Positions 12,595-55,473 of a stretch of 64,000 nucleotides of DNA are shown piece after piece (the stretch's first letter is position 1; each line of letters begins with the position of its first letter). The notes beneath the pieces are model-generated. The model did not search any database, was not told the DNA's origin, and saw only the letters and a list, made by a program, of their open reading frames with translations. The position numbers were made by a program, and so were the translations under genes. The DNA is from a virus (taxonomy: Duplodnaviria; Caudoviricetes). The DNA lies in IMG/VR virus record IMGVR_UViG_3300020477_000013, positions 32,001 to 96,000 of that record. One strand, 5' to 3'.

Positions 12595-15500
12595 ATGGCT
12601 GAGCAAACATTTCGTTCACCCGGGTTTTTCGATAATGAGATCGATCTTTCAAACAGAAGTACATCTCCTAGCGGAATTCCAGCGGGTGTTATTGGGACCG
12701 CGAAACGAGGTCCCGCATTTATACCAATCACAGTAGGAAATTTTGCAGATTTCGGAGATCGCTTCGGAAGTTTAGACCCAAATTTGGCGGGTCCCTATGC
12801 TGTTAATGAATTTCTTAAGAATCAGCGTGCATGTACATATGTTCGAGTTTTAGGCTGTGGTGCAAATGAAACCACAAGCGATATAACTACAACTGAGACT
12901 GAGGGAACCGTTAAAAATGCTGGTTTCACAGTTTCAGGTTCAGGGCCTGCTTTAAATAACATTGCTGCTTGGGCAGGCAACGAGCGTGACCGCAGGGCAG
13001 ATGGTGCTGTGCAGTTCTTAATTGCTAGACATTTTGTGTCTGCATCATTCGAAGGTATCGCATTCCCACAGTTTAGTGATAACCAGAGTTTCCCTGGTAC
13101 TGAGTCTGGAAATGATAACATTAACCTAGTACGTGCTGTCCTATTTACCGCGACAGGATCTAGGTTTCATGTCCTTGATTATAATAAGCAATATTCTTCG
13201 GCTAATTGTCTTACCGATGTCGCGTTTATTGCAACGACAGCATCAAATGACAGTGGTGCTAATCCGAACCCATCATTTCCTGCATACTCGTTTAAATTGG
13301 TTCTATCCAATTCAGACGGCAGGGACTTTGCAACGACTGATGGGTCGACAGGTATTAAGGTTTATTCTTGCTCGCTAAATCCGAATGATGAAATATACAT
13401 TTCAAAGGTGTTAAACACAGATCCTTTGAAGTTCCAAGATCATAAGCATGTCTTATATTCTGACTTTGCTGTGGATCATGAGGTTGCACCGCTATCCGTC
13501 ATGGGAGGTCTTAGCCTCGGCGGCGTACAACCAACAATAGCCATCGCATCTGGAAGCTATTTCCGCCCAACTGATAGCGGTAATTCCTCAAAGGTAATGC
13601 AGGAATTGTTCGGTACTTTTGCAACAAGGTACACTAATCCAAAGACAACTTCTATAATATCACAGCCTTTCGGCGAAAAAGAGTGGGATCTTTTCCACGT
13701 TGAGACAATTTCTGATGGTGAAGTTGCAAATGCAAAGTTTAAGTTGTCTGTAAAGAACCTTAAAGCATCAACAAACGATGAATATCCTTTTGGTACGTTT
13801 GACTTAGAGCTTAGGGAAATGGACGATACGGACCTAGACCCACAGGTTATTGAGAAGTGGCCAAATCTTAACATGGACCCAGATAGTGGTAGGTACATCG
13901 CTAGGGTTATCGGTGACAAGAAAGCTTTCTTTAATTTCGACGCTGCGTCAGAGGAAGAGAGAAGAGTTGTTGTCCAGGGTCAATTCCCAAATAAATCTAG
14001 GTTCATAAGGGTAATTCCTAGTACTTTCGTTAAAAATAAAGACGTGCCCAAGGAGGCAATGCCTTTTGGGTTTAGGGGAATTGGGGTCATTAAGACTAAT
14101 GACACGCTAACAGACAGGCTAGATAAAACTATTAACGTCGCAGGTACAAACCTGGGACCCACGCTGATAGGTGCAGATGCAGCGAGACTTTCATTCTGTT
14201 CTGGCTCATATCTTCTCGCATCAAATGCCCAGCCCGAGGGAATATTGCCGGCAGGTCTTAACCTATCAGGCGCTATTGTTCCTCCACTACCGTACAGGTT
14301 CAAATGTACTAGGTATTATATGAAAGGAGCCCAGATAGGCGAAACTGTTAGTTTTGCTGGTGAGCAAGGTGAGGATGAAAGGGCCGACTCTAGGTATTAC
14401 TGGGGAGTCCAAACAGTCAGTGTACCGGCGACAGGGACATTTGGGTCAGGAAATAATGACCTGTTCCGCCCGAATGAAGGTACTACATTTAATGGTATCG
14501 TGAAGGCATATACTAGGTTCGGGGGGATTAAGAAGCTTGACACCTTAGTTACAGGTTCAGGTGCTGATCACTTTAATAGTAATAAGTTTACCCTAGCTAG
14601 GGTGGCATTACCTAATGGCCTCTCTACGACATATCATATAACCGATATTTCTTCTAGCGCAAATGAGCATATGAAGGGCGCTGCCTATATTCGTAATGGT
14701 GTGCCTGAGGTTACAAGATACACGATACCTGAGACCGCCTTGGGGGGACGCGGGAGAATTACATTAGCAACTCTAATCAATTCATCCTCCGTTGTGTTTA
14801 ATCGCTTTACACCCTATGCTAAGTTTACCACCATATTCCATGGTGGGTTTGATGGGTTAAATATCCTAAATGAAGACCAGTTTAGAATGACCGATAAGGC
14901 TTCATCTACGACAACTGGCGGGGGTATGGCAGCAACTGATTATACAGATACAGGCCTAGCAGGTGGAAACCCAGCTGGAACGAAGATTGATAATTCTATC
15001 ATCAGGGCCTATAAGCAAGCAGCGAATATCCTGACTAATCATCATGTGTCTAATGCAAATATTCTGGCAATCCCAGGGATAAGGGATAAGATGATATCTG
15101 ACCATGCCATGGCCAAGTGCGAAGAAAATGGCCAGGTATTTTTCGCGATGGACCTTGAGCCGTTTGACGAAGATGGAAATCGGCTATACAGTGATTCAGT
15201 AAAGCGCCCTGCGGTGCAGACTACTTCTGAGAGATTAGGGCTAAGAAATATAGACAACAATTTTGTTGGGACATATTTCCCTGATGTCTTTATTAATGAT
15301 GCTGTTAATAACCAGGTTGTGAAGGTGCCTGCTTCAATTGCTGCTGTTAGCGCATTGGGATTCAATGACAGTGCCGCAAAGCCATGGTTCGCGCCGGCAG
15401 GCTTTAATCGTGGTTCGCTTGGGTTTGTTTCAAATGTTGATGTTAGGCTATCAGCAGGTGATCGTGATACGCTTTATGATGCAAGGATTAATCCTATCGC

Positions 15501-15882
15501 GACATTCCCCAATAGCGGATTCGTTATTTTTGGCCAGAAGACGCTGCAGGCTGCTAAGACCGCACTCGATCGTATAAACGTACGAAGGATGTTAATCGAG
15601 GTCAAGAGGTTAATTTTTGGGGTGGCTAGGTCTATTTTGTTTGAGCAAAACACTGATGCTACTAGGGCTAGATTTATCTCGCAGGCAACGCCTCTGCTGG
15701 CGCTTGTCCAGGCGGGTCAAGGAATTGAGCAATTCAAAATTGTGATGGATAGTTCCAACAACACCGTTGAGGATGTCGAAGCGAATCGCCTAAATGGGCG
15801 GATCATCGTTGTTCCGACAAGGGCAGTAGAGTTCATCGCGGTTGACTTTATTATAACAGCGTCAGGCGTAAGTTTTGAATAA
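12595..15882 (+). CDS. gp18: contractile tail sheath protein, copy 1
   Basis: N-terminal SPGFFDNEIDLS; C-terminal WFAPAGFNRG...RDTLYDARINPI..F....VIFGQKTL....ALDRINVRR...P.RAVEFIAVDF. Confidence 0.92.
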   Translation: MAEQTFRSPGFFDNEIDLSNRSTSPSGIPAGVIGTAKRGPAFIPITVGNFADFGDRFGSLDPNLAGPYAVNEFLKNQRACTYVRVLGCGANETTSDITTTETEGTVKNAGFTVSGSGPALNNIAAWAGNERDRRADGAVQFLIARHFVSASFEGIAFPQFSDNQSFPGTESGNDNINLVRAVLFTATGSRFHVLDYNKQYSSANCLTDVAFIATTASNDSGANPNPSFPAYSFKLVLSNSDGRDFATTDGSTGIKVYSCSLNPNDEIYISKVLNTDPLKFQDHKHVLYSDFAVDHEVAPLSVMGGLSLGGVQPTIAIASGSYFRPTDSGNSSKVMQELFGTFATRYTNPKTTSIISQPFGEKEWDLFHVETISDGEVANAKFKLSVKNLKASTNDEYPFGTFDLELREMDDTDLDPQVIEKWPNLNMDPDSGRYIARVIGDKKAFFNFDAASEEERRVVVQGQFPNKSRFIRVIPSTFVKNKDVPKEAMPFGFRGIGVIKTNDTLTDRLDKTINVAGTNLGPTLIGADAARLSFCSGSYLLASNAQPEGILPAGLNLSGAIVPPLPYRFKCTRYYMKGAQIGETVSFAGEQGEDERADSRYYWGVQTVSVPATGTFGSGNNDLFRPNEGTTFNGIVKAYTRFGGIKKLDTLVTGSGADHFNSNKFTLARVALPNGLSTTYHITDISSSANEHMKGAAYIRNGVPEVTRYTIPETALGGRGRITLATLINSSSVVFNRFTPYAKFTTIFHGGFDGLNILNEDQFRMTDKASSTTTGGGMAATDYTDTGLAGGNPAGTKIDNSIIRAYKQAANILTNHHVSNANILAIPGIRDKMISDHAMAKCEENGQVFFAMDLEPFDEDGNRLYSDSVKRPAVQTTSERLGLRNIDNNFVGTYFPDVFINDAVNNQVVKVPASIAAVSALGFNDSAAKPWFAPAGFNRGSLGFVSNVDVRLSAGDRDTLYDARINPIATFPNSGFVIFGQKTLQAAKTALDRINVRRMLIEVKRLIFGVARSILFEQNTDATRARFISQATPLLALVQAGQGIEQFKIVMDSSNNTVEDVEANRLNGRIIVVPTRAVEFIAVDFIITASGVSFE

Positions 15883-15922: not shown

Positions 15923-18900
15923 ATGGGTGAACAAGTTTTTAATAGTGCCGGCATACAAGCTCAAGAGATAGACCTATCAGGTCCTAAGCCTGCAAAGCCG
16001 GAAGGTACACCGGCAGGTGTTATAGGTACTTCTAGAAAGGGAAGGGCATTCGTTCCTATTACTCTCCCGAATATGTCTGAATTTATAGTTAAATTTGGAA
16101 ATACTGACGGGAAACAATTTGCGCCGCTGGCTATGAGGCAGTGGTTTTCAAATGGAGCGCGTGCAGGTACCTTTGTTAGGGTCCTTGGCGCCGGCGATGG
16201 CAAAAAGCGTGTCGAGTCAGGTGATAATTCCGGACGAGTTAATAGAGCAGGATTTGTCGTCGGTGGTCAGGTCATACAGGATAATGGACAGCTAGGAAAT
16301 AATAAATGGGCAGGTGTTAATGCTGCTGGTGGCGGTCATAAGGATGGGACATCAATAGGTAAAGGTATGGCAGGACGTACCTACTTCTTGGGTTGTTTCA
16401 TGTCGGAATCGAAGATTAGCTCGACTATCTTTCGTGAGTCAGGAATTATCCAGGGCTCAACCGCAAATGGTTATGATAATCCCGCTGGTACAGTCAATCC
16501 GTTAACCCAGTCGAAGCCTATCATCCGTGGCGTCTTATTCGCTGCGTCTGGAGTCGCCCTTGGCCTATCGGCTACTATGCACAAGGGTAATGACCCATTC
16601 ACTGATGCATGCGCTATTACGAAGAGGGCTGCCAATTCAGACCAGGGTTTCACGACCGCTGATTACACAGCTGCTGTATTCGGTGGTCAGTCGGGAAGCT
16701 TTACGACGAATGCCGGAGGTTTCCTGGGTGATATTGATAAATCATCAAATGGCGGTGATAAATTTACCATGATCTTGAATGGTATGCCCACCAATGATGA
16801 ATTTAAGAATGTTATTACAGCATCATTTGATCCCAAGGAAAGATCTTATTTCGCAAATGTGTTTAATAAAGATCCTAATAAGTTAGAAAAGGCTGGGCAC
16901 TGGCTTTACACACACTATGACGTCTATCCTGCATATGCAACTATCACAGGCTCAAAGTCAGCGCTATCAGGTACCGATCCAAAAGACTGGGGGGGCCTGG
17001 GTGATATTACAATTGGCTCCGGCCCATCATCCGGTGGTGCACAGATTGCTTTCCTGTTTACAGCGTCGCTAGCAAGAAATAGTGGCAGCGCTGCTAATAC
17101 TGATGCCGACCTTGCATCTTATTTTGACGGGGCTACCTACGGAGTTCCTAACTTTGAGGGCTTCGAGGATAGGTATAGGGCAGCATTTTCCCCCTATGTA
17201 ATATCTCAAGATATGGGTGATGGTGCTAAGAATTTGTTTAAGGTTCATGCTATCTCTGATGGTTTGGGAGGCTATACACCAACCGCTGCTGATCTTCCCC
17301 CTGAGAAAATAAAGATAAGTATTTTAAACCTCAAGAAGTCTAGGTCGACAAATCCCAACCAGCAGTATGGGACATTTGATTTGCTGGTTAGAAAGCTTGA
17401 TGACACTGATAGGAATCAAGTTGTATATGAGAAGCACACAAACCTAGACCTTGACCCCTCTTCTGATAATTACATAGCTAGGAGGATTGGAGATACTCAT
17501 ATATACTGGGATTGGGATAGGGATGAAACAGCTCAAAAACTAGTCGTAGAGGGTAAATATCCTAATTTTTCCAACTATATTAGGGTTGAGATGAATTCAG
17601 AGGTTGACCGAGGCCCGATTGGAATGGAGCCCAAGGCGATGCCGGTCGGTTTCCGCGGTCCTAACCATCTAGTTACATCCGGCTCTGCAATATTTGCTGC
17701 AATGACAGGAGCACTAGGCAGGGTTGGCCCGGGTTCTGCTCCAGGAGCTTTCGCTTCGTCAGAGATCGTTGTTCCGCCGATTCCTTTCCGTAGGCACATT
17801 ATGCGAAAGCGTGGTGTTGCTGACGTCGCTGTTTCATATCTTCACTGGGGTGTACAAACAACAATCCAGGACTCATTGGAAGAGCCCAATAAGAGTTTAC
17901 AGTACAACGATGGTATAGATTCTTACACAAAGTATTTCCCACATTATGCAACAACTTTCGCAAAGGCATGGGTTGGTGATAATGCGGGCGTCTCGATGAA
18001 GGGCGGGACAGTCCTTGACAGTGATAGGTTTAATAATAACATGTTCACACTAGAGCGAGTTCAGGTTGTGACGCAGAGCAGTACTGTCGATTTACCTGAC
18101 CCACTCCAGTGGGCTGCTGCTAGATATCGACGCGATGGAACGTTGGCTGATTTGACAAAATCAGATGATTCAACGCAACCAGGACGATTTATTAATGTTA
18201 AGAAAGATTTCGGTGATTCAACAACACAGTCTTTCCTAAAATTCTCATTCTTCCTCCAGGGTGGCTTCGATGGTACCAACTTGTTTGATAAACAAAAATT
18301 CGAGTTAACAGATCTTGCATGTAGAAGAGAAAAGGATAACACGAACCAGGGTGGTGTCCGAGGCCCAACGGTAATGGCATACAGGAAGGCTATTGATATC
18401 CTTAAGGAGAGAGCCGATGCAGATATTCAGCTGCTCGCTATTCCTGGGCTGAGACATCCTGTTGTCACTGATTACGCAATTGATGCTATTGAGGATCGCT
18501 TTGATGCATTATACATCATGGATATTGAGGAAAAAGATTCTGCAAACATGTATGTTACAGCTTCAGACGTTCAATTAGTTGATGTTACAAATACAGTTAG
18601 AAGATTCGACGATAGGAATTTAGACACATCATTTGCAGCAGCATATTTTCCAAACGTGGTTATCCGCGATGCTGCTACCGCCACAGACTTGACAGTGCCC
18701 CCGACAGTATCTGTCCTCGGCGCATTCGCTCAAAACGACAGGCTGGGCCACCCGTGGTTGGCACCAGCTGGATTCACACGTGGCGCGCTAAAGGATGTTA
18801 TAGACTTGGGCGTAGAGCTTAAGAAGGAAAATATGGATAAGCTGTACCCAAGTGATATTAACCCCATTACTTCATTCCCCGATGCTTCTGGGCCGCTTAT

Positions 18901-19258
18901 ATATGGCCAAAAGACATTACTTCGAGCGCAGTCGGCTTTGGATAGGGTTAATGTTAGGCGCTTATTAATTGAGATTAGAAGAAGGGTTCGTAAGGTTGCG
19001 AACAATATTCTATTTGAGCCCAATCGTGCATCCACGTTAGCTAGGTTCTCCGCTGCGGTTAATCCGATATTATCGAAGATTCAAGCCCAGCAAGGCCTAG
19101 ATAGGTTCAAAGTTCAGATTGATACAACGACAACAACACAGGCGGATGTTGAGAATAACACCATTAGAGGAAAGATATTCTTGCAGCCCACACGTGCTGT
19201 TGAATTTGTCGCTCTTGACTTTGTTGTTACTAACACAATTAGTGACGATATGTTGTAG
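15923..19258 (+). CDS. gp18: contractile tail sheath protein, copy 2
   Basis: N-terminal SAGIQAQEIDLS; C-terminal WLAPAGFTRG...LY...INPI..F....IYGQKTL....ALDRVNVRR...PTRAVEFVALDF. Confidence 0.92.
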   Translation: MGEQVFNSAGIQAQEIDLSGPKPAKPEGTPAGVIGTSRKGRAFVPITLPNMSEFIVKFGNTDGKQFAPLAMRQWFSNGARAGTFVRVLGAGDGKKRVESGDNSGRVNRAGFVVGGQVIQDNGQLGNNKWAGVNAAGGGHKDGTSIGKGMAGRTYFLGCFMSESKISSTIFRESGIIQGSTANGYDNPAGTVNPLTQSKPIIRGVLFAASGVALGLSATMHKGNDPFTDACAITKRAANSDQGFTTADYTAAVFGGQSGSFTTNAGGFLGDIDKSSNGGDKFTMILNGMPTNDEFKNVITASFDPKERSYFANVFNKDPNKLEKAGHWLYTHYDVYPAYATITGSKSALSGTDPKDWGGLGDITIGSGPSSGGAQIAFLFTASLARNSGSAANTDADLASYFDGATYGVPNFEGFEDRYRAAFSPYVISQDMGDGAKNLFKVHAISDGLGGYTPTAADLPPEKIKISILNLKKSRSTNPNQQYGTFDLLVRKLDDTDRNQVVYEKHTNLDLDPSSDNYIARRIGDTHIYWDWDRDETAQKLVVEGKYPNFSNYIRVEMNSEVDRGPIGMEPKAMPVGFRGPNHLVTSGSAIFAAMTGALGRVGPGSAPGAFASSEIVVPPIPFRRHIMRKRGVADVAVSYLHWGVQTTIQDSLEEPNKSLQYNDGIDSYTKYFPHYATTFAKAWVGDNAGVSMKGGTVLDSDRFNNNMFTLERVQVVTQSSTVDLPDPLQWAAARYRRDGTLADLTKSDDSTQPGRFINVKKDFGDSTTQSFLKFSFFLQGGFDGTNLFDKQKFELTDLACRREKDNTNQGGVRGPTVMAYRKAIDILKERADADIQLLAIPGLRHPVVTDYAIDAIEDRFDALYIMDIEEKDSANMYVTASDVQLVDVTNTVRRFDDRNLDTSFAAAYFPNVVIRDAATATDLTVPPTVSVLGAFAQNDRLGHPWLAPAGFTRGALKDVIDLGVELKKENMDKLYPSDINPITSFPDASGPLIYGQKTLLRAQSALDRVNVRRLLIEIRRRVRKVANNILFEPNRASTLARFSAAVNPILSKIQAQQGLDRFKVQIDTTTTTQADVENNTIRGKIFLQPTRAVEFVALDFVVTNTISDDML

Positions 19259-30207: not shown

Positions 30208-30504
30208 ATGGCATTTTCAAGATACGATCGTTCACCTAAAATAGATTTAGGTAAGATGGTGGGTACATCAAAGTACATACCGGTCTTACAACAGGCTATA
30301 AAACTAGGATTAATTGAGGTAGAAGATGTAGTAGTTTCAAAAGCTCAGCGTCTTGATGTTGTCGCCGGACGAACCTGGGGAGATGGTAGGTATTGGTGGA
30401 TTATCGCTGCTTGTTCCGGAATAGGCTGGGGAATGCAGGTGCCTCCCGGTACTGTTCTAAAAGTGCCTATAAATTTGGGTGATATAGAGAGTTTAGTGGG
30501 GTAG
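30208..30504 (+). CDS. LysM-like baseplate wedge protein (gp53/tail X-like)
   Basis: RLDVVAGRTWGDGRYWWIIAACSGIGW..QVPPGTVLKVP. Confidence 0.75.
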   Translation: MAFSRYDRSPKIDLGKMVGTSKYIPVLQQAIKLGLIEVEDVVVSKAQRLDVVAGRTWGDGRYWWIIAACSGIGWGMQVPPGTVLKVPINLGDIESLVG

Positions 30505-30511
30505 CGTTTAT

Positions 30512-33500
30512 ATGACTGATAGTTACGATAAGGATCTACAGCAGATAGGAAAATATTTTGGCGTTCCCACACGTGACAGTAAGGTTATGTTTCTACAGAG
30601 CCTTGAGGCACTTTCGGGCGAGTCATTTAATAAGCTGGTGGGTTCTTCAAATGAGCTAGATAAGATGATCTCAAGTATCCAGTCACCTACCACACTCGGC
30701 CCCTCCGCCAGAGTAATTTACCAGCAACTGAATAATTTATCAACGTCAAAAAATAAAGATGCTGCAGGCGCTGCGATCAAGGATGTTGTCGGTAAGATGA
30801 TTGACGTTACTTGGGTGCACCCACAAACCGCTACTCACCCTGGGATAAACGAGTATATTAACCCTGTTTCAAGCTTTTGGACACAGGGGACTCCGGATGG
30901 TAAGTCTAATACGCCGGCAACGATCAAGAGTATGATGTCTGAAGAGACTCTGGGCGACATTAATAGCAAGCATTTTAAGCCTACCCTGACAGCCCCTAAT
31001 TTGTCGGTAATACAGATATACGACTCTAGACGAACACCATCTTCTACAGATACGGGCGCAGTACAACTTTTCTTAAATTCTATACCCACGATAGAATTAA
31101 GCATGTGCGTTCCATTTTTGGATGTTACTGTTGTCGAGAAAGGCCCTGCCTTAGATTATAATAATAAAGTACAGTCAATGGGTATAGTTCGTACACTAAT
31201 GGGCACGACGAATGTTGGTACTGATCAAAGTCATCCAAACTGGATCCTTGCGAATGCTGTAGATTCAGGGGTTCTGTCAACAATTAGGGAAAATGAACGT
31301 GCAATTCAGAATGGCGTTAACAAGGCTGGTAGGATTGAGACGACCGGGCAAGGCAAGGGCGTTTTTTCTTTTTCTTCTTCTGGGATGGAGATGTTTCTAG
31401 CTCCCCAGACTCTTACACCAAATGATGTATACCAGGATAAAGCAATAGGCGTATCGCCAAGTGGAAAAAATAAAGCATCTGCAAATAAGTCTGAGGCTGA
31501 ATCCGCTCAAGCAAATTCTCAAGCTGGAGCAGGTGGAAGGCCGGCCCCTATTTTAGATAGGTTTAGGCCGCTAGCATCGATTGAGTCATTCAACGTCAGT
31601 ATCAAATCCACCGTGGGGTTTTTATCATTTAAGACTGCTGAATTAGTCATAGTGTTACATGATCGATCTCGCCTTCATGAAATTGCCCCCCTTGTCCGGC
31701 CTGATATTTTCGGTGCTGGAAAAGTTAGGATGATGATTGAATATGGTTGGTCTCATCCAGCAGGAAGTCATAGTACACACTATAGCTTTTTCGGAAGGTT
31801 TTTAGACGGGCTTCGTGTCAAAGAGATGTTCAATGTTGTAAATTCATCATATTCTTTTGACGAAGACGGGAGTGTCAAGATTAGCCTGACACTGTCGACG
31901 GCCGGGGGTACATCGCTGGGAGCGATTATGATTCCTGAGTCGCCAAAGCTTGCTCAAGCAAGGGTCGCGATGGACAACTTGGTAGAGGCAATTAATAGGC
32001 TTCGCATCAAGATACTGGGCGGTGGTTCTGCTGCAAAAAGCTTGAATAGAAAAACATTCCTAAATTCAGTGAATACTACCTCAAGGGCTCTATCTATGGA
32101 TGAGGAAACAAAGAAAGAGCTATCTGCTTTTTTAGGGACAAATACTAAAGATCCGGATATTTCGAAGTTAAAATCTATTTTAAGTACGCTGTATGGTAAG
32201 AATGGTGATGGAGGAAAGGCTAATACGTATCAAGCAACTATCAATTCTGTGATATCACAGAAGCTAAAGGATATAACAACGAAACCTGATCCATTTCTTA
32301 GGAGTATTCCTGATTCTCTAAGAGGTGGAGCTGCTACTGATTATATTACTCCTGCTGTCGATGCCAGTATAAAGAAAGCAAAGAAGAGATCATGGGTGTC
32401 TTTGGGGAAAATTTTAACCTTATTTGTTGGCATACCGCTAGCAGCCTCAAACCGCTTTCACGAAATACAGATTATCACTTATTCATTCAATGCGAAGGCA
32501 ACATTCGTGAGATCGTTTAATATAGCCCAGTTCCCTATTAACATAGAGGAGTTTGAGACGAAGATAGGGAAATTCACAAAGGCAGGTTTAGCAATGTCTG
32601 TTTCATCATTTTTGGGATGGCTACGGCGTGAGTTTGTATCGACACCAATTGCAACGCCTTACGGTTTTAACCAGATGTATGATATCAAGGATGACGGCTA
32701 CAGCTATAAAGATAAATTCAAGGATGCAACAATTCTTGCTAATGAGAGAAGGCAGAGGATGATGGTCGCGTACCACGGTTCCAAAGATTCATCAGCACCG
32801 GAGGATTTAGAGTTCAAGCCACCTCGCCTAGACTTTAAGATAGAGGCCCTTCCTCTACAGAAGGATATTGCTGATTCGAAAAAGCAACCGTCAGAAGCGC
32901 CTGAGACGCTTTTACGTATTCATATTTTTGATGCACAAAATATTGATAATGTTACTGAGTCGATGTTACTCACATCTGCATTTGAAGAAACAATAGGTTA
33001 TATAGGCAGGTCAGCTTCTGCCGTGAAAAATGCAGATCAGAAAAATGCTGGTCATATTGCTTCATTTGGCGAAGGATTGCGTCGTGCACTAAAGGCAGGA
33101 ATTATAGAGCCTGTGGGTACCACCGTTAAGACGAAGGAAGCAGGGACACAAGATTTGGTTAAGCTACGGTATAAGCTAAAGGGTAATTTCTCTTCTCTGA
33201 AGAGGTTCGTTTCATATAACATGCCTACAATTGATGTAGGGTCGAATTCATCTGCTGTGATTAATGCAAATCTGGAAACACAAAATAATCCCCTGCTAGC
33301 TACAATCAGTATGCAGCGCGCAAGAAGTAAGAGTTCATCTCAAGCGCCAGGTGTAAACCAAGGTGCGATGCCAATGCAGATAAACCCCACGACCGTCAGC
33401 CTTACGACATATGGAAACCCTCTCCTGTCCATGGGCCAGCAGTTTTTTATTGATTTTCATACAGGGACAAGCGCAGATAATGTCTATAGGGTTTCTCAAC

Positions 33501-44082: not shown

Positions 44083-44685
44083 ATGAAGTGGGTTTCCAAA
44101 ATATCAGGTTTAATAAAAGAGATAGAGTTAAGAAAAAGCCCGGTGATTATTAGGGTTAATAAATTCGATGAAGAGTCTGCAAAGAAATTTTCACAAGAGA
44201 TGGCATTAGCACATAATACTGGGCAAAAAGTTATTCCCGTTGTAATTGATTCTTACGGGGGCCAAGTTTATTCACTTATGTCAATGATAGCTGCTATTAG
44301 AGATGCTGAGATTCCTGTTGCGACTATAGTCGAAGGAAAGGCGATGTCTTGCGGTGCAGTGCTGCTATCTTTTGGGGAAGACGGATTACGGTTTGCTGAT
44401 CCCCATGCAACGGTAATGATACATGATGTCTCTAGCGGGATGTATGGAAAGGTCGAGGAGCTCAAGGCCGATGTTAAAGAGGCTGAAAGGCTAGACGAAA
44501 AGATATACACAATGATGGCACGAAACTGTGGTAAGAAAGATGACTATTTCAAAAAGAAGGTCTTCAATAAAAAACATGCAGATTGGTTTATGGACGCTGA
44601 AGAAGCAAAGCGTCATGGCTTAGTTAACCACTTAAGGATACCAAAGCTTACAATTGCTGTCGATGTCAGTATAGAGATGGAGTAG
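44083..44685 (+). CDS. clpP: ClpP-family serine protease
   Basis: IDSYGGQV, GKAMSCG (catalytic Ser), MIHD (His), WFMDAEEA...GLV. Confidence 0.88.
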   Translation: MKWVSKISGLIKEIELRKSPVIIRVNKFDEESAKKFSQEMALAHNTGQKVIPVVIDSYGGQVYSLMSMIAAIRDAEIPVATIVEGKAMSCGAVLLSFGEDGLRFADPHATVMIHDVSSGMYGKVEELKADVKEAERLDEKIYTMMARNCGKKDDYFKKKVFNKKHADWFMDAEEAKRHGLVNHLRIPKLTIAVDVSIEME

Positions 44686-44688
44686 CAT

Positions 44689-45591
44689 ATGTTCGGTATG
44701 ATGAGAAAGATATCATATAACAAAAAGTCATCTAAAAAATTAGGTTGGCGCCCTTTCTGGTTTGGGGAAGATGATTTTAGTTCCACATTAATAAAAAAGA
44801 TTAAAGAATTTCAGGAGAGCCATGATCTTAAACCAGATGGCTTGTGCGGAGATGTTACATTTCGCCGTATATATTCTGAGCAAGAGTCCTCTAAGGACGA
44901 AGATACCGGATCACAAATTATAGTCGAGGGAATTCCTATATCGATTCCGTGGGATAAAGTCGTTTCTATAGAGGATCCGGATAATCTTTCATTACCGAGA
45001 AGTTGCTATCGTCATCGAGACAGGCCTGACCCAACACAAATTGTGACGCATTTTGATGTTTGTCTTAGCGCGGCATCATGTAAGCGAGTGTTACAAAAAA
45101 GGGGCCTGTCTAGCCATTTTGTGATTGATAATGACGGTACGATATACCAGATGGTCGATACCGCATATGAGGCATGGCATGCCCCACCCTCGAATAAGAG
45201 AAGTATCGGTATCGACATAAGTAATGCATATTATGTCAAGTACAATAAAACCTATAAGTCTAGGGGGTTTGGGCTCCGCCCTGTTTTAAAAAATCTACCC
45301 TTGCATGGTACAAAGATTAAGGAGTGCCTGGGGTTTTATGATGTTCAAATAGAGGCGTACAAGGTATTACTTAACACACTTTGTGATTTTTATAAGATCC
45401 CAAAAGAGTGTCCGCTAGATGATAATGGAGATCTTCTGAGGGGCGTGTCGAAGGATGCACGGTCCGGGAAGTTTAAGGGCATTGTTTGCCATTATCATTT
45501 AACGAGAAAAAAAATTGACTGTGTTAATTTAGAGTTAAAGCAAGTGTTAGACGAAATGAAGGTCTCCGGTATGAGCAACGATGAAGCCTGA
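44689..45591 (+). CDS. N-acetylmuramoyl-L-alanine amidase with a peptidoglycan-binding domain (endolysin candidate)
   Basis: FQ..H.L.PDGLCG..T (PG-binding), IVTHFD, SSHFVIDNDGTIYQ.VD....AWHA, SIGIDISN, VCHYH. Confidence 0.85.
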   Translation: MFGMMRKISYNKKSSKKLGWRPFWFGEDDFSSTLIKKIKEFQESHDLKPDGLCGDVTFRRIYSEQESSKDEDTGSQIIVEGIPISIPWDKVVSIEDPDNLSLPRSCYRHRDRPDPTQIVTHFDVCLSAASCKRVLQKRGLSSHFVIDNDGTIYQMVDTAYEAWHAPPSNKRSIGIDISNAYYVKYNKTYKSRGFGLRPVLKNLPLHGTKIKECLGFYDVQIEAYKVLLNTLCDFYKIPKECPLDDNGDLLRGVSKDARSGKFKGIVCHYHLTRKKIDCVNLELKQVLDEMKVSGMSNDEA

Positions 45592-46291: not shown

Positions 46292-46329
46292 CCTGTGGAT
46301 TGATAATTATTTCAAGCCCGGGGTGTACG

Positions 46330-49300
46330 GTGAGTTCAGAATTTGCTAGTCTCATAAGAAAATATATTGCAGAAGCCAATGATTATTCATGGGATGTTTC
46401 TAACCGCAAAAATATGTTGCTAGATCAACCTGGGATGGAGCAGGAAGATAAGGATAACACTGAGGAGTACCTAAAGTCAATGGGCTTGATGGAAAATATC
46501 ATCGCTCTTTACTTAAGGGGTATTTTAAGTGAGAAAGAACTACGCGGCCAAAAGAGCAAGCGTACACTCTACCACATTGGCAAACGACCAGCAGAGCCGA
46601 AGCCTGCTGAGCGCTGGGGTGCAAAAGGTGAGGAGGGCTGGTCTAGAGACTGGATAGAGGGCCCTGTTAAGTCTGGAGTTTTTTTAACACCCAATCCAAC
46701 AGATATTGCCTGGAATCACGGCGTCAGCGGCAATGTGTATGCCTATAAGGTTCCACAATGGGTTATTGAAAAATCAGGAGGTGTGAACCGTTTTGATACA
46801 GGCTCAGAGATCCTCATATCACAAGAGATATGGGAAGAGGCTGGGGATGAGATAGAATTCTTAGGCAAGACTATGGGCAAAGATGAGTTATGGGACTCGG
46901 TTGACTCGTCTTATTACAGCTCGAAGCAAAAGAAGGGTGTACGTGGCGCACACAAGCATGATGACGGTGCATCTAGCATCTCAGGGCTTAGATCAACCAA
47001 CCACCCCGAAGCTGCGATCAAGATGATGTCTCAAGAAGAGATCGAGAAAGCCCTAGCAAAATTTGAAAATGAGTACGCACAGGAGGGCCCTGCGGAGGTG
47101 GTCAAGGGCCCGCGAGATAAAAAAGGGCTCGTCATCCCCTACCTTGGCAAGCAACCAAGGGGTAAAGACAAAGAGCTTATTGATCTTCTCAACAAGTACA
47201 TGAAGGAGTCGGTTGTTCGACAGTATATAAAGGATCTGCTTGTAGAGGTCCCACTTGATGACTTTGAGTATGTTTCCAAAGACCACGACGATGTAATGGT
47301 CCGAGAAGAGGTTGCTGATTATTTCAAAGCGATACCACAGAGTGTCAACATCTACGTCGCACATACAGACGATCTTAGCTGGGCACATAGGCTGCCAAAC
47401 GAAATACAGGGCAAGGTATCCGGATTTAAAAGTCGAGGCCAGGTCACCCTTACTGATATTTCAAACATCGGAGAGCTATATCCTCAGATACAGAGGGCTA
47501 TGCACCCAGAAGGAATCAATCTTCTCTACGTCTACCCTAAATCTTTTGAAGTTCCTGCCGGCGGTGATACATTCATTGCTGATGTCAACCCCCACTATTT
47601 GGCTCACGATCTTCATCACATGCTTGAGAATGCCCCCGGCCGTGAAAGAGGAGAAAAAGACAAATTCACTTCTCTTATAAAAGAGTATCTGATGGAGCTG
47701 GTCTGGCTGTCTCACGGTGGCGGGTCGGTGGAAGCTGAGCAAGTGCGAGATACAATGCGGAGAACCGGCCGGCGTCTTGGGGTTGCAAATACAAACCTCT
47801 TGATGAGTGAACTGTTTCCAGGCATCAAACTACCCAGTGGTGACTTCGATCTATTTGGTGATGTCTTTGCTGACTACCTGAAGAACGATGGAAACTTAGT
47901 CCTCGGCGTTCCAGAGCAGCTCGATTATGATGGCACAGTCATTGAATTGAATCCCGGCTCTAAGCACGATCAACGAGCGCAGCAATACGAAAAGAAATTT
48001 AAAGATCTGTTCAATGCAGTATTGGATCCGCTCAAGGGAAAGGTGGCAATGTTCAACATCTTCGAGGTCGAACACCGCGAAGTAGAGCGTGCAAGGAAAC
48101 AAGCCGAAGAGAAAATGCAAGCTGACCATGGCCAACTCATCGACCACATTAAGTCTATGGGCGGAGAGTTTAAGTACTTCGACGAAAGCCACAGAGAAGA
48201 GGGTGTCGAGGAGTTGATATTTGACACCGGTCTCAAGCCTGAAAAGCCGGTCTATGGGATCGAAGAGTTCACCCAACAATTTCCAGAAGAGGCGGCTGGC
48301 ATTGAGGCTTTGGGCTACAAGATAACGAGTGCCTTTGACGGGTTCGGGGGTAGCTCTGTGGAGATTAGGCTGAAGATGGCAGGCATCAAAGAGAGCGTTT
48401 TAAGAAAATATATAAGGCAACTACTCAAAGAAGACCCCATGGGCTTTGTTCACGACCTAGCAGCCTCGGATAAGTTCGGCGATCAGTTTAGGGGTGGCCA
48501 AGTTGGTAAAGATGCTGGTCGAGATATCAAGCGCGCTTTCAACAAAAACGCAGACCACCAATTTCTCAGCACGCTGGATACAGTTCACTGGTTTTACACT
48601 GTTTACGACTTAGAGCCCTTGGTAGGAAAAGGTAAAGATGAACTTTCTGCAACAATGACGCTCCCCGGAGATAGCTTTGACCCAGCCGGTCTTCCATACG
48701 GGCTATGGATTAAGGGCAGAATAACACTGGCTACTAATGAACAAGATAAGATGTACTCCGGATTTTATGGGGACTATGGCGCCGGCTATGAAGGATCAGA
48801 AGAGGAAGTTGCTCATAGAGACCGGTCTTCTGGCAGAAATAAACGGCCATCTGTATCAAAAGATTACAGTCGATACGGCCAGCTCGAACGCGGAAATGAA
48901 TACATGGAGAAGATGGCAAGAGATGGTATTCCCTATATCTTAGATCAGTCAACATGGAATCCAGGTAAGACCAGGTCTAATAATGAGGCGCTGGTAGATA
49001 ATTGGAGGCCTATAGGGATCATTGTTGCAAAGAACGACGTTATAAAAGCTATTCTCAAAGCAGCCAAGAAACTTGCTGGAGAAGGTGGTACCCCACCGAG
49101 CGGTAATATTGCCAAAGACATTAATTATTTTTCGACTGGTGTGACACAAGAGATCATACTAGCAGCCCTACAGTTGGGCGTTCCGATTTATGACACGAGT
49201 CGAACAAAGCTATGGGGCCCTCCCACACACCAGAGTGGAACACAAAAAGAGCTCCGCCAGTACGTAAGAGGGCAGTTAATTTTAGAAGATCGAATCCTCC

Positions 49301-49644
49301 AAGAAAACGTTTTCAAGAAAGCGATTTCATGGGTAAAAGAAAAAGGGCAAGCAGGTATAGAGGCAACCCGCGAATTTCTCACTGACCTAAAAGAAGAGTT
49401 ATCAGAAACTAGGGAGGGAGCAGCACTTCTTACGAAACTAGCTTCTGGTAAAAATTTGTCGCCAGAAGAAACTGGATTTCTAAAACAGCAAGCTAAAGAT
49501 GTAGCGTCAGGTACAGTCCTACTAGGCTTGTTTGCCCTTCCGGGTGGTGGGTTGGCTACTGCAGCCCTTTTAAAAGTAGCAGGAAAAGTAGGTGTTAACC
49601 TTAAACCTACAGCATTTAGAGGGAATGATGAAACTACTTCATGA
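46330..49644 (+). CDS. modular polyprotein: five segments, each opened by an LR.YIR.LL.E-type peptide
   Basis: Peptides at 46339, 46492, 47206, 48391 and 49249. Segments include ART-like (LYHIG...VFLTP...SEIL), HDLHH metallo-motif, a paralogue of 54655-55473, and a LETM1-like C-terminus. GTG 46330 preferred over TTG 46300, which overlaps the late motif. Confidence 0.8.
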   Translation: MSSEFASLIRKYIAEANDYSWDVSNRKNMLLDQPGMEQEDKDNTEEYLKSMGLMENIIALYLRGILSEKELRGQKSKRTLYHIGKRPAEPKPAERWGAKGEEGWSRDWIEGPVKSGVFLTPNPTDIAWNHGVSGNVYAYKVPQWVIEKSGGVNRFDTGSEILISQEIWEEAGDEIEFLGKTMGKDELWDSVDSSYYSSKQKKGVRGAHKHDDGASSISGLRSTNHPEAAIKMMSQEEIEKALAKFENEYAQEGPAEVVKGPRDKKGLVIPYLGKQPRGKDKELIDLLNKYMKESVVRQYIKDLLVEVPLDDFEYVSKDHDDVMVREEVADYFKAIPQSVNIYVAHTDDLSWAHRLPNEIQGKVSGFKSRGQVTLTDISNIGELYPQIQRAMHPEGINLLYVYPKSFEVPAGGDTFIADVNPHYLAHDLHHMLENAPGRERGEKDKFTSLIKEYLMELVWLSHGGGSVEAEQVRDTMRRTGRRLGVANTNLLMSELFPGIKLPSGDFDLFGDVFADYLKNDGNLVLGVPEQLDYDGTVIELNPGSKHDQRAQQYEKKFKDLFNAVLDPLKGKVAMFNIFEVEHREVERARKQAEEKMQADHGQLIDHIKSMGGEFKYFDESHREEGVEELIFDTGLKPEKPVYGIEEFTQQFPEEAAGIEALGYKITSAFDGFGGSSVEIRLKMAGIKESVLRKYIRQLLKEDPMGFVHDLAASDKFGDQFRGGQVGKDAGRDIKRAFNKNADHQFLSTLDTVHWFYTVYDLEPLVGKGKDELSATMTLPGDSFDPAGLPYGLWIKGRITLATNEQDKMYSGFYGDYGAGYEGSEEEVAHRDRSSGRNKRPSVSKDYSRYGQLERGNEYMEKMARDGIPYILDQSTWNPGKTRSNNEALVDNWRPIGIIVAKNDVIKAILKAAKKLAGEGGTPPSGNIAKDINYFSTGVTQEIILAALQLGVPIYDTSRTKLWGPPTHQSGTQKELRQYVRGQLILEDRILQENVFKKAISWVKEKGQAGIEATREFLTDLKEELSETREGAALLTKLASGKNLSPEETGFLKQQAKDVASGTVLLGLFALPGGGLATAALLKVAGKVGVNLKPTAFRGNDETTS

Positions 49645-50422
49645 ATACATAAGGTCGACCCTAATGTCTGAGTCTAGGTTTAAGCAGATATTTAAACCCA
49701 AATTCACAGACTTACGGCAATACTTAGCGGGGTCTTCTTTTTTGGATGCTGACCCTGCCGGTGATCTAGATGAAGACACATGGTCGTCTGAGGCCGCCGT
49801 GGTACTTAGGGACGATTTAAATGATTATTTCGATTCAAAATTTGAGTCTGGTTATTTGACAGCAATTGTGAAGGTTGATATGGGATGGACAGACCCCAAA
49901 GCTGGTAAAGACAGTGTTCTTAAGAATGCGACATATTACTTCAAGGGTGGCCTTCATTTCCTAGAGGTTATGTTAGCAGATATTGATGATGGTTCTGTCA
50001 TAAGGGACATGGGACGCCCTGAGCAAAAGGTTTACGAAGTTATTTTACACGAGCTTTTACACATGCAACAGTTTTTAAGGTTTAGCAAGGGAGAACCCAC
50101 TGATAAAAAGTGGGAACACTTCATGAAAGAGTATCGCCGCCGCGGCGGAGCATCAGGTATGGGTTCAGATTATTTCTTTTTTGACGAACCTGGTGCTGCA
50201 TCTGAACTTGAGACATTTTCGTTGCAAATTGCTATTGAGCTTGTGGATGCTATTGGTCAGGAGGCTGCTGTCGCAATATTAGGGCAACAACCTGATTATG
50301 ACATGATAAGAAGAAATTCCGCATCATTTAGAGATATTGAGAAAGCAGGTAATCTCACATCACGCCCCGAATTTAAAGAGCTGGTTAAAAGGGCGAAGCA
50401 ATACGCGAGGCTATCATCATGA
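49625..50422 (+). CDS. signal-peptide cassette with an HExxH zincin-like metallopeptidase body
   Basis: MMKLLHEYIRSTLMSE; VILHELLHMQQF with downstream ELETFS as candidate third ligand. Confidence 0.7.
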   Translation: MMKLLHEYIRSTLMSESRFKQIFKPKFTDLRQYLAGSSFLDADPAGDLDEDTWSSEAAVVLRDDLNDYFDSKFESGYLTAIVKVDMGWTDPKAGKDSVLKNATYYFKGGLHFLEVMLADIDDGSVIRDMGRPEQKVYEVILHELLHMQQFLRFSKGEPTDKKWEHFMKEYRRRGGASGMGSDYFFFDEPGAASELETFSLQIAIELVDAIGQEAAVAILGQQPDYDMIRRNSASFRDIEKAGNLTSRPEFKELVKRAKQYARLSS

Positions 50423-52382: not shown

Positions 52383-52789
52383 TGAAACTACTCCGCGAGT
52401 ACATAAGGGTTTTACTCGAGCAGCCCGATATCGGATTGCCTCCGACGCTGTACCATGCGACTTATGGTCCTTTAGTTGACTCGATCATGTCATCTGGCTT
52501 AGGTGGATCCAGAGATACAATGTGGGAAGATTCTGTGAGAGGTACTGTTTATCTTGCACTAAGTGATGACGTTGCTTATAGCTATGCTGAAACTTCCGAC
52601 GACGCATGGGATAAGTTTGAGACTGATGAAGGGCTGGAGATTGTAGTATTCGAAGTTGACACTTCTCAACTTGATCCATCTAAATTTAACATAGATCAGA
52701 ATGTCATAGATAACGAGGGAGACACTTTAGGGTATTATGGTGTCGTACCTCCTTCTGCGCTTAGGATGATCAGTAGAGTGTACGCATGA
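52382..52789 (+). CDS. signal-peptide cassette with an ADP-ribosyltransferase-fold body (His type, Tpt1/PARP-like)
   Basis: MKLLREYIRVLLE; TLYHAT...SIMSSGL...VYLA...A..YA...VFEVD...VPPSAL. Confidence 0.6.
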   Translation: MKLLREYIRVLLEQPDIGLPPTLYHATYGPLVDSIMSSGLGGSRDTMWEDSVRGTVYLALSDDVAYSYAETSDDAWDKFETDEGLEIVVFEVDTSQLDPSKFNIDQNVIDNEGDTLGYYGVVPPSALRMISRVYA

Positions 52790-53604
52790 AACTACTACGT
52801 GAATACATAAGAAGTCTGCTGATTGAGACTGCGATAGGTCAGTGTTATCCGCATGTCGTTAAGATGGCCAAGGGTTCTTCTCAAGAAGAATTCTCAGACC
52901 TAGCCAGATTCAAAGTAGCTCATGGTAGAGTGACAGACAAGTATTCAGGTGAATCAGTTCTACATGCCTGGGTTGAAAAAGGCGATATGGTTTTCGATTG
53001 GCAGACACATTCCACCAAACCTGATGGTATTCCGAAAGATGTCTACTACGACATGTACGCACCAGAAATCCACAACGAATACACAGCCGAAGAGACCATG
53101 GTCAACTGTTTGAAAAGTGGCCAGGCCGGCCCATGGACTTTGAGAGAGTCTACAGGGATAATAGAAGACGGTTGGCCTGGGGTTACATGGAAAGTCCAGA
53201 ATTATGGGAACGGTATCTCCGTTGTCTTAATGATGAGTGGGCAAAAGATGGGAAGCATCATAGCTCGGGAAGTTTCGCGCTGGAAATACTGTGCCGATGA
53301 CGTAGAGAAGTTAAAGGCACAAGGGTATGATTACGAAGACCCACGCTGGCCATCATTAGGACCTAAACTTTTCGCGGTAGGTAATTCTGCAATCGACCAA
53401 GCATTCCGGGGCCAAGGCTGGGGAAAGAAGATGTATAAAGTCCTGATCGACACCATCCGCCAAGAAGCAGGCCGCCGGGGTGCATTTATCGGCGCAGATG
53501 TATGTACAGGCGGATCAACCTCGAAAGGTGCCTTAGGCGTATGGAGATCATTGGCCAGGGACTATCCATCATCCGGTAACGTAGTCTACGTGGGGCCGAA
53601 ATGA
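52786..53604 (+). CDS. signal-peptide cassette: transglutaminase/papain-like domain plus GNAT acetyltransferase
   Basis: MKLLREYIRSLLIE; GQCY...HG...HAWVE...D; then SAIDQAFRGQGWGKKMY (GNAT motif A). Confidence 0.6.
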   Translation: MKLLREYIRSLLIETAIGQCYPHVVKMAKGSSQEEFSDLARFKVAHGRVTDKYSGESVLHAWVEKGDMVFDWQTHSTKPDGIPKDVYYDMYAPEIHNEYTAEETMVNCLKSGQAGPWTLRESTGIIEDGWPGVTWKVQNYGNGISVVLMMSGQKMGSIIAREVSRWKYCADDVEKLKAQGYDYEDPRWPSLGPKLFAVGNSAIDQAFRGQGWGKKMYKVLIDTIRQEAGRRGAFIGADVCTGGSTSKGALGVWRSLARDYPSSGNVVYVGPK

Positions 53605-54134: not shown

Positions 54135-54655
54135 ACCTATTACGTGAGTACATAAGGGAGTTATTAGGTGAAGGTGTAGAATTCAGGGAGCTTGATTCTC
54201 CCCTGACATATTATCGATCTAGCAATGTAAAGAGACTGGCTTTATGCGATACGTCTGTAGATGAACCTGCCAGCAGGAGTGATCTTTACTTTTCAGAATA
54301 CCAAGAAATGGAATACGTCGGCAGATCTGGTCGAAGATTAAAGAAACCCAGGAAAGGACAGTTGATACCCGGCGTTTCTGATGTCTGCGTTATTGGGTTC
54401 TTGGACTATCACCAGCAAGGCACCACCCGTGATGGTAAGCCAATGTGGTATTTAGACTATATAAAAACTCGTGGAGGCCACGGTGGGCAAAAGGTGGCTA
54501 GCCGTCTAGTAGACGAGTTTTTCAATCGATATGTAACCGATCCAGGTGTACACGTACACTTCGGAAAGATGATGCGTAAGGAGGTTGGCCACCTAAAAGA
54601 TAAGATGGCAAAGAAATACCCTGACAACATCGTCATTGGGGCAAGGAATTACTGA
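54131..54655 (+). CDS. signal-peptide cassette with a GNAT-like body
   Basis: MNLLREYIRELLGE; IGFLDY...WYLDYIKTRGGHGGQKVASRLVDEF. Confidence 0.55.
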   Translation: MNLLREYIRELLGEGVEFRELDSPLTYYRSSNVKRLALCDTSVDEPASRSDLYFSEYQEMEYVGRSGRRLKKPRKGQLIPGVSDVCVIGFLDYHQQGTTRDGKPMWYLDYIKTRGGHGGQKVASRLVDEFFNRYVTDPGVHVHFGKMMRKEVGHLKDKMAKKYPDNIVIGARNY

Positions 54656-55473
54656 TGAACCTACTCCGCGAATACATAAGATCACTTCTGGTTGAAGACG
54701 CAGCTAAGCGCAAACAGTTCGCTCAACACCTTATTGATGCAGGTCACTCTGAGGCAAATTTTGACACGCCTGATGTAGTCGGCCACAGTATTGACAAGGT
54801 GAAGAAGCTCGTTAAGACTGCTCTCGATCAAGGCAAGCTTCTCAAAAAGGCTTTCGCCGAAACTGCAGACAGGGCTTTCCTCGATAGCTTAGTCACAGTT
54901 CACTGGTTCAAAACCAGAAAGACGATGGAGGCATTTTTAGAAGGATCATTTAGTCCCAAGGATGAATTATCAGCCACGGCTTACCTACCGGGTGAAATAA
55001 AAGGCGCCGGCAGGTTTGGTGATTATGGAATCCTTATCAAGGGCCATATCACTCTTTTGGCAAACGACATGGATCAACTCTACACAGGGGCTTCCAGCAC
55101 TTACAATGCAGTGTTTCCTGAAAGAAAGAAGCAGTCTGGCATTAACAAGGGTGTCGAGCAGATATATGAACCAAAAGGTTACGAAGACTATAAGATCGTT
55201 GTGCTTGACGAAGAAGATTGGAACCCCTCTATTGGTGGCTTCCGCAGCTCACAGAATAATGAGGCGCTCGTCGACAACTGGTCTCCGATGGCAATTATCG
55301 TCCCTGACTCTTCAAATCAGCCAGGTTACTGGGATGAAGATTTACAAAAGATGGAACCTGCCGGCCCTGATACAGCGGAAGCCGATATCATTTGGAAACC
55401 GCTACTAGACAAGGCCGGCCTGGATATCCCAGTTATGACAACAAGGGAGCTTGTATCGAGAGGCTGGGTATAA
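54655..55473 (+). CDS. signal-peptide cassette; paralogue of polyprotein segment 4 (possible ART-like fold)
   Basis: MNLLREYIRSLLVE; TVHWF...KDELSAT..LPG...YG..IKG.ITL..N..D..Y.G...NNEALVDNW.P shared with 48433-49050. Confidence 0.75.
   Translation: MNLLREYIRSLLVEDAAKRKQFAQHLIDAGHSEANFDTPDVVGHSIDKVKKLVKTALDQGKLLKKAFAETADRAFLDSLVTVHWFKTRKTMEAFLEGSFSPKDELSATAYLPGEIKGAGRFGDYGILIKGHITLLANDMDQLYTGASSTYNAVFPERKKQSGINKGVEQIYEPKGYEDYKIVVLDEEDWNPSIGGFRSSQNNEALVDNWSPMAIIVPDSSNQPGYWDEDLQKMEPAGPDTAEADIIWKPLLDKAGLDIPVMTTRELVSRGWV

Follow-up and report, generated by a model that had tools for sequence, protein, structure and literature searches.

We describe an open reading frame (ORF) in which a short peptide tag, the same that heads ten neighboring genes, recurs in frame between modules that show no relationship to one another. 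The ORF lies in a 64,000-nucleotide window, by which we mean the whole stretch of DNA analyzed, corresponding to bases 32001–96000 of a linear IMG/VR virus record (IMGVR_UViG_3300020477_000013; 201.6 kb, ~73% complete) whose source is an uncultured marine T4-like giant phage. Our data strongly support that the ORF is a set of fused, INDEPENDENTLY mobile modules, independent evolutionary units recombined at the tags. Judged from the sequences, what appears to be new is a natural combinatorial family in which an N-terminal cargo tag recurs as an in-frame joint with a second, upstream Glu site. The explanation we favor, and hold to be somewhat probable, is that the ORF encodes a capsid-cargo precursor that would be loaded into the phage head and cut there into separate proteins.

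The tag, M[KN]LLREYIRxLLxE, heads window genes beginning at 34939, 36621, 49628, 50419, 52382, 52786, 53601, 54131, 54655, and 57017. With a position matrix trained solely on the N-terminal tags of other window genes, and 2,000 shuffles of the polyprotein for comparison, the four internal copies (tags A to D) score, in rank order, 26.4, 19.1, 13.9, and 11.9 bits, and at each rank none of the 2,000 shuffles reaches the observed value. The copies differ in their synonymous codons and keep their residues, suggesting selection on the peptide. The N-terminal copy (tag 0) scores 3.4 bits by the same matrix, because it is a short form ending in ...YIAE↓A (arrows mark candidate cuts). It is homologous to a fuller internal tag, EIRNYVREIFE↓ANEYGW, preceding the same 39-residue mini-module in a relative (P0061), and the scaffold-like gene at 1870–3663 opens with ...FKEAIAE↓A. 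The first-pass annotation had reported five tags in the ORF; all five are present, but the first had been placed at 46339, 9 nt before SLIRKYIAE begins (46348). The Met codons that it reported just before two of the tags (GLM-EN and KYM-KES) are both there. A further tag-like stretch, LIKEYLMELVWL, lies inside module 3 (47674–47709, residues 449–460); it scores 5.2 bits, exceeds all shuffles at its rank, and is kept in homologues; it may be a tag that has degenerated, a joint between sub-domains, or a chance match.

Evidence for modularity comes from relatives. HMMER, run exhaustively against 1.84 billion representative proteins, returned 528 matches, and among the best 150 of them none matched the ORF over its full length. 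BLAST alignments start in clusters at residues 50–79, the 290s, 680–699, and the 970s and end in clusters at the 300s, 690–700, the 960s, and 1090–1100, that is, at the tag positions. Module 2 (P0031) and module 4 (P0010, P0045, and P0058) each occur alone behind an N-terminal tag, module 5 occurs alone behind a tag (P0081, P0090, P0120, and P0124), module 3 is found as tag, module, and tag (P0004), and in the relative L003 the modules are encoded by distinct genes that occupy different frames. Elsewhere, on related IMG/VR contigs and in longer proteins from metagenomes, they are fused in other orders, namely 3-4 (L002, P0154, and P0157), 4-3 (L004 and P0158), 3-2 (P0153), 2-3 (P0163), and 2-4 (P0170). 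Module 1, the 39-residue mini-module, is flanked by two tags in P0061 and P0177 and lies at the C terminus of P0099, where two tag-like stretches precede it. Each joint in these fusions normally bears a tag. The partners in relatives include PolyA_pol/CCA-type nucleotidyltransferase, P-loop kinase, HD, PAP2, HAD_SAK_1, and DUF192 domains, mostly domains of nucleic-acid-end or RNA-repair enzymes. The identical 1,104-residue protein is present on three ENA contigs (the longest of 288 kb), and a four-module variant from Tara/MetaClust and NCBI data (P0183/P0186), 99.8% identical over residues 65–1104, carries a single N-terminal tag, MKQIRQYISLLIE↓KELRGQ, in place of tag 0, module 1, and tag A, with the exchange point exactly at tag A. 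Homology breakpoints at the tags, together with large modules that stand alone tagged or reordered, bear out the earlier proposal that formerly separate cassettes were fused in frame, and the search for the segments as separate genes in relatives found modules 2 to 5 each alone behind a tag.

The leaders themselves vary. A third type, MKLL(F/M)ENWR(K/H)YLxE, stands before modules 2, 4, and 5 in other relatives (P0034, P0063, P0069, P0070, P0077, P0079, P0029, and P0113), in addition to the LLREYIR and MKITxxQLRxIIRE types; the presence of several leader types on the same modules indicates that leaders and cargo are exchangeable independently. On three different cargo modules (P0021, P0022, P0121, and P0110) the tag is preceded by a conserved N-terminal pre-piece of ~30 residues, MKKEPQIFTRxNAQxVPV..DILDALEQxE, whose sequence suggests a further propeptide mini-cassette, similar to module 1. 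The two halves of the tagged window gene at 52786–53604 (residues 1–122 and about 118–272) sit in different genes in relatives (L002 and L004), so that module shuffling reaches single-gene cassettes too.

Predicted structures place the tags at the edges of domains. We modeled two sub-constructs with AlphaFold2 and family alignments, residues 1–320 (predicted local distance difference test, pLDDT, 83) and residues 680–1104 (pLDDT 79), which cover modules 1, 2, 4, and 5; a composite MAFFT alignment for the full-length protein had misaligned modules 4 and 5. The tags are moderate-confidence helices that border globular domains whose pLDDT is above 90, and the core of module 2 exceeds 94. The model helix 279–306 terminates exactly at the Glu of tag B (E306), module 4 begins two residues past the Glu of tag C, and tag D lies in a helix running into the helical module 5, whose tail is unstructured at residues 1061–1085. 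No domain runs across a tag in the two folded sub-constructs, in agreement with the earlier expectation that domain boundaries would coincide with the tags. In a wide VIA-align search with the model of residues 1–320, the N-terminal helical hairpin accounted for the matches, and the search was uninformative on the core domain.

The tags also end in candidate sites for the head protease of the phage. All five finish in hydrophobic-x-Glu (IAE, LSE, LVE, LKE, and ILE), which is the rule of T4 gp21, and the phage encodes a gp21-type prohead protease (Peptidase_S77, PF03420; 92.3 bits) at genome positions 30362–30787, in a gene spanning 30278–30877, 1.1 kb upstream of the window. This protease is 32% identical to T4 gp21, with the H85, S140, and D168 columns conserved; its best cultured relative belongs to Flavobacterium phage immuto (46.8%), a phage in which the strict tag pattern was not found, and 2,610 phage records match it. 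S77 is also encoded by both relatives with enough sequence. The capsid protein contains an L-R-E↓A motif that aligns with the T4 gp23 maturation site L-T-E↓A, which follows a 65-residue propeptide (PMC9026906). Within the module-4 family, the terminal Glu of the tag is invariant (39/39) and the next residue is Asp in 37 of the 39, for N-terminal and internal tags alike. Counting tag positions in relatives from the aromatic residue, 53 internal tags have Glu at –6 in 42 cases, Ser at –5 in 23, M/L/I/V at –8 in 38, and Glu at +7 in 42; among 29 N-terminal tags, 18 have the initiator Met at –6 and 24 have Glu at +7. A second [M/L/I/V]-x-E↓S site, 13 residues upstream, is conserved at internal tags but not at N-terminal ones; together with the terminal Glu it places a candidate site on either side of an internal tag, at a spacing of 13 residues. 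In the ORF the pairs read L-M-E↓N...L-S-E↓K, M-K-E↓S...L-V-E↓V, and I-K-E↓S...L-K-E↓D; the extra Glu that the first-pass annotation saw before internal copies is present here as in most relatives, and the bracketing makes its idea of excision on both sides plausible. A complex prediction for the protease with a 45-residue piece containing tag C scored 0.02, which is neither for nor against binding.

Table 1. Coordinates of the ORF, its tags and modules, and related genes in the window (residues refer to the encoded protein)
Feature	Position	Strand	Description
Polyprotein ORF	46330-49644	+	1,104 codons plus stop, 123.5 kDa, single open frame
Tag 0	46348-46374	+	Residues 7-15; SLIRKYIAE↓A, short N-terminal form ending I-A-E
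Module 1	46375-46491	+	Residues 16-54; 39-residue acidic spacer mini-module, isoelectric point 4.2
Tag A	46492-46533	+	Residues 55-68; ENIIALYLRGILSE↓K, L-M-E before
Module 2	46534-47205	+	Residues 69-292, 25 kDa; core residues 77-182
Tag B	47206-47247	+	Residues 293-306; ESVVRQYIKDLLVE↓V, M-K-E before
Module 3	47248-48390	+	Residues 307-687, 43 kDa; VPLDDF always right after tag
Tag C	48391-48432	+	Residues 688-701; ESVLRKYIRQLLKE↓D, I-K-E before; strongest internal copy
Module 4	48433-49248	+	Residues 702-973, 30 kDa; globular
Tag D	49249-49287	+	Residues 974-986; ELRQYVRGQLILE↓D, weaker copy, links modules 4 and 5
Module 5	49288-49641	+	Residues 987-1104, 12.5 kDa; helical
Gly-rich hydrophobic stretch of module 5	49510-49584	+	Residues 1061-1085; GTVLLGLFALPGGGLATAALLKVAG; maximum Kyte-Doolittle 1.94
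Acidic scaffold-like protein	1870-3663	+	19 L/I-x-E motifs; starts MSKLFKEAIAE↓A; named from sequence features alone
gp23-type major capsid protein	3707-5638	+	L-R-E↓A at residues 59-62
Next gene after the ORF	49628-50422	+	N-terminal tag MMKLLHEYIRSTLMSE; 17-nt overlap with polyprotein end, other frame
Stand-alone module 4 paralogue	54655-55473	+	N-terminally tagged; 38.7% identity, E 3e-25

A model that accommodates these observations is that each module follows a predicted amphipathic helix tag of 13–14 residues which would act like a T4 capsid-targeting sequence (CTS), docking the precursor to the scaffolding core of the prohead. The end of the tag would be the hydrophobic-x-Glu site for the gp21-type protease, which would excise each tag via its terminal and upstream sites, so that the modules would come apart within the head and be delivered along with the DNA. 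Capsid loading, cutting at the tags, and injection are steps that we infer.

Known phage systems provide close parallels. In T4, unrelated proteins, even foreign ones, are loaded by the CTS, which gp21 cuts off, and the ADP-ribosyltransferase (ART) Alt is packaged and processed at both termini (PMC9026906; PMC3012670). Like the CTS of IPI-III and Alt, the tag described here is a short N-terminal peptide common to unrelated proteins, with hydrophobic-x-Glu at its end. The phage also encodes a protease of the gp21 type, its capsid protein keeps a maturation site like that of T4, one of the cargo modules is ART-like, as Alt is an ART, and the cargo genes are polymorphic between related phages, as are those of the T4 internal proteins. 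We take the ...KYIAE↓A of tag 0 to resemble the ...EFIAE↓A of T4, the peptides being too short for statistics. The tag differs from the T4 CTS in being longer (~14 residues, LLREYIRxLLxE), without demonstrable homology to MKTYQEFIAE, and in its distribution, on ten genes in the window alone and inside one ORF, between modules and with two candidate cut sites. Engineered T4 IPIII/CTS fusions (expression-packaging-processing, Black and co-workers) likewise combine a carrier, a gp21 site, and a foreign protein that is packaged and processed in the capsid (PMC9026906), but these are laboratory constructs with one junction, whereas here a natural gene has four junctions and belongs to a combinatorial family. 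In T4 core proteins gp22, gp67, and gp68 and in phiKZ and SPN3US ejection proteins, one protease also cuts after Glu at several sites (PMC5694885; PMC10052503); those cuts, however, destroy scaffolds or long propeptides for clearing, and release of several folded enzymes has not been reported.

The polyvalent proteins of phages and conjugative elements (Iyer, Burroughs, Anand, de Souza, and Aravind, 2017) similarly place several unrelated effector or enzyme domains on one polypeptide, with extensive mosaicism and predicted delivery with DNA, and an analogy to RNA-virus polyproteins, with embedded peptidases, was already drawn for them (PMC5512222). Our ORF shares with them the joining of at least two unrelated domains in one polypeptide and mosaic architectures among relatives. 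It differs in that the head protease would act in trans to release the domains, cutting at a repeated targeting tag found also at the start of single-domain genes, and Pfam and PHROGs searches of the ORF and its modules matched neither an embedded peptidase (MPTase and others) nor a signature family of the polyvalent set, such as ART-PolyVal. As for an RNA-virus-type polyprotein, which encodes its protease within itself, no peptidase family was detected in the ORF, and the candidate protease is a separate gene. The first-pass annotation had called the strategy unusual for double-stranded DNA phages. This holds insofar as we found no description of the tag motif or of natural CTS-delimited polyproteins in the searchable literature; it needs to be tempered by the precedents of multi-site gp21 cuts, Alt, engineered IPIII fusions, and polyvalent proteins.

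Several modules offer hints of function. Module 2 is a probable ART-fold domain of the H-Y-E type, as suggested by conservation in its family of H82 (71/78), Y137 (77/79), and E160 (80/80), by Atlas feature matches to PARP/Arr, and by weak fold matches, none better than E 0.05, that are nearly all to ARTs (diphtheria toxin, ParT, Tpt1/KptA, Arr-2, PARP, MbcT, Tox-ART-HYD1, DUF3990, and DUF4433). Its core is also found in proteins of 1,100–3,200 residues with TopoIB, HAD_SAK_1, 2H, and LigD_N domains. Module 4, which mostly starts with DPMGFV immediately after the tag Glu and forms the protein end in nearly all relatives, at a position matching residue 964, weakly resembles ARTs in its modeled fold; an Atlas feature search with it gave no usable match. 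Module 3 had no Pfam, PDB, or Atlas match. The Gly-rich hydrophobic stretch of module 5 suggests a possible membrane-active cargo piece, and a stretch similar to the module 5 tail follows a tag in a different relative protein (L003:6033-7685). Pfam and PHROGs provided no family for the ORF, its modules, or nine tagged neighbors, profile searches with modules 2, 3, and 4 against PDB sequences found nothing meaningful, and tblastn against 50,697 cultured-phage records gave zero matches with the ORF and zero with a 22-residue tag query, the latter being a weak test. The enzymatic roles we infer are ADP-ribosylation, or RNA-end chemistry as in RNA-repair proteins. More tentatively, and with considerable doubt, we propose that the tag is a portable load-and-cut element, each internal copy being excised as a 13-residue peptide, so that cargo could be strung in any order and reshuffled by recombination. 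The phage would then inject a changeable, equimolar kit of ART-like and RNA-end-repair-type enzymes that would act before phage gene expression, for example against host anticodon nucleases.

Some observations weigh against a precursor that is loaded and cut in the head. L/I-x-E motifs are not depleted within the modules, some relatives terminate in a tag followed by 3–4 residues, and the gene, without a recognizable promoter of its own, sits amid genes of replication and nucleotide metabolism. The first of these would be expected of an uncut or only N-terminally trimmed polyvalent protein, in which the tags would be amphipathic helices acting as linkers or as docking elements, for example by binding the scaffold, DNA, or one another multivalently. 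Such a chain has precedents in multidomain polyvalent proteins that are delivered whole, such as the N4 virion RNA polymerase and ArdC (PMC5512222), and the predicted tag helices are continuous with flanking helices. A plain linker, however, has no obvious need for an invariant terminal Glu or for a hydrophobic-x-Glu↓Ser motif conserved upstream of internal tags only, and the modules stand alone in many relatives; we consider an uncut chain unlikely, while ranking it first among the alternatives.

The genomic setting raises a different alternative, that the tag is another kind of signal, one that directs proteins to a membrane or compartment, controls their turnover (for instance through the phage ClpP, encoded two genes upstream), or brings together an intracellular enzyme complex, and that fusion merely co-expresses the cargo. 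Besides its place among replication and nucleotide-metabolism genes, the ORF lies beside genes for ClpP and an amidase, the partner domains in relatives act on nucleic-acid ends and could function in the cytoplasm, and a late-promoter signal was not found. Against this, the end of the tag fits the P3-P1 rule of the gp21-type protease that the phage encodes, as well as the maturation site in its capsid protein; proteins of the head module bear related leaders, and ClpP is not known to recognize a motif of this kind. We judge this explanation improbable.

Still less probable, in our view a slim chance, is that the internal tags are in-frame translation starts, with fossil or active Met codons, giving nested and separately tagged proteins. 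T4 genes 17 and 21 use such starts, according to their annotation, Met lies one or two residues ahead of tags A and B, and position –8 is Met in 16 of the 53 internal tags; but tag C has Ile, tag D has no nearby Met, and Met is missing from the other 37. There are no Shine-Dalgarno-like or promoter-like sites within the ORF, whereas the structural genes have strong AGGAG sites, and a sigma-70/terminator scan returned zero plus-strand sites within it. Finally, the contig is metagenome-assembled and the neighboring tagged genes are tightly packed and overlapping, yet an assembly or sequencing artifact joining neighbor genes has a negligible chance of explaining the long ORF, given the identical protein on three ENA contigs, the 99.8% variant in Tara/MetaClust and NCBI data, and dozens of independent relatives with other in-frame fusions.

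Genes in the window run on the plus strand throughout, and the phage encodes T4-type head genes; a family search with the scaffold-like protein was without match. DnaB, ribonucleotide reductase, ClpP, amidase, and ThyX are encoded 5' of the polyprotein gene, and the genes just 5' of it (44083–45591) encode a protease of the ClpP family (PF00574, E 3e-30) and an Amidase_2 protein whose PG_binding_1 match falls below cut-off. The polyprotein starts at a GTG, with an in-frame TTG at 46300, and the same GTG was chosen by the gene caller of an independent ENA record (P0152). The next gene, 49628–50422, has a weak SprT-like match, below the Pfam cut-off. An ATATTTA-like motif followed by a strong AGGAG site, which may be the late promoter of the phage, occurs upstream of the structural genes at 1870, 9299, 12595, 19325, 19930, and 26372 and is absent upstream of the polyprotein gene; the T4 late-promoter consensus TATAAATA was not enriched (3 matches vs 4.4 expected). 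Two adjacent and very long tail-sheath paralogues lie at 12595–15882 (1,095 residues) and 15923–19258 (1,111 residues), both matching phrog_23 (E ~1e-54 each). Outside the window, at genome positions 118387–118480 and 147954, ORFs end in a truncated tag (...NESLLRNYVREFMGGLM and ...MKESLLRAYVREMLG), in one case followed by a second tag in another frame, and such ORFs may represent fusions that have been broken or shifted in frame.

If the tags are cut, the ORF would represent a natural polyprotein system of double-stranded DNA phages in which a single junction combines capsid address, protease site, and recombination joint. This would carry the T4 CTS concept beyond small internal proteins, each taken singly, to precursors of several enzymes, and would provide a ready design rule by which phage capsids could be loaded with several proteins in fixed ratio. 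Modules 3, 4, and 5, which represent three abundant and uncharacterized marine families, and the ART-like module 2 would be flagged as probable virion-delivered effectors. A head-processed, tag-jointed precursor would also explain how large marine phages build and rapidly reshuffle their arsenal of injected enzymes.

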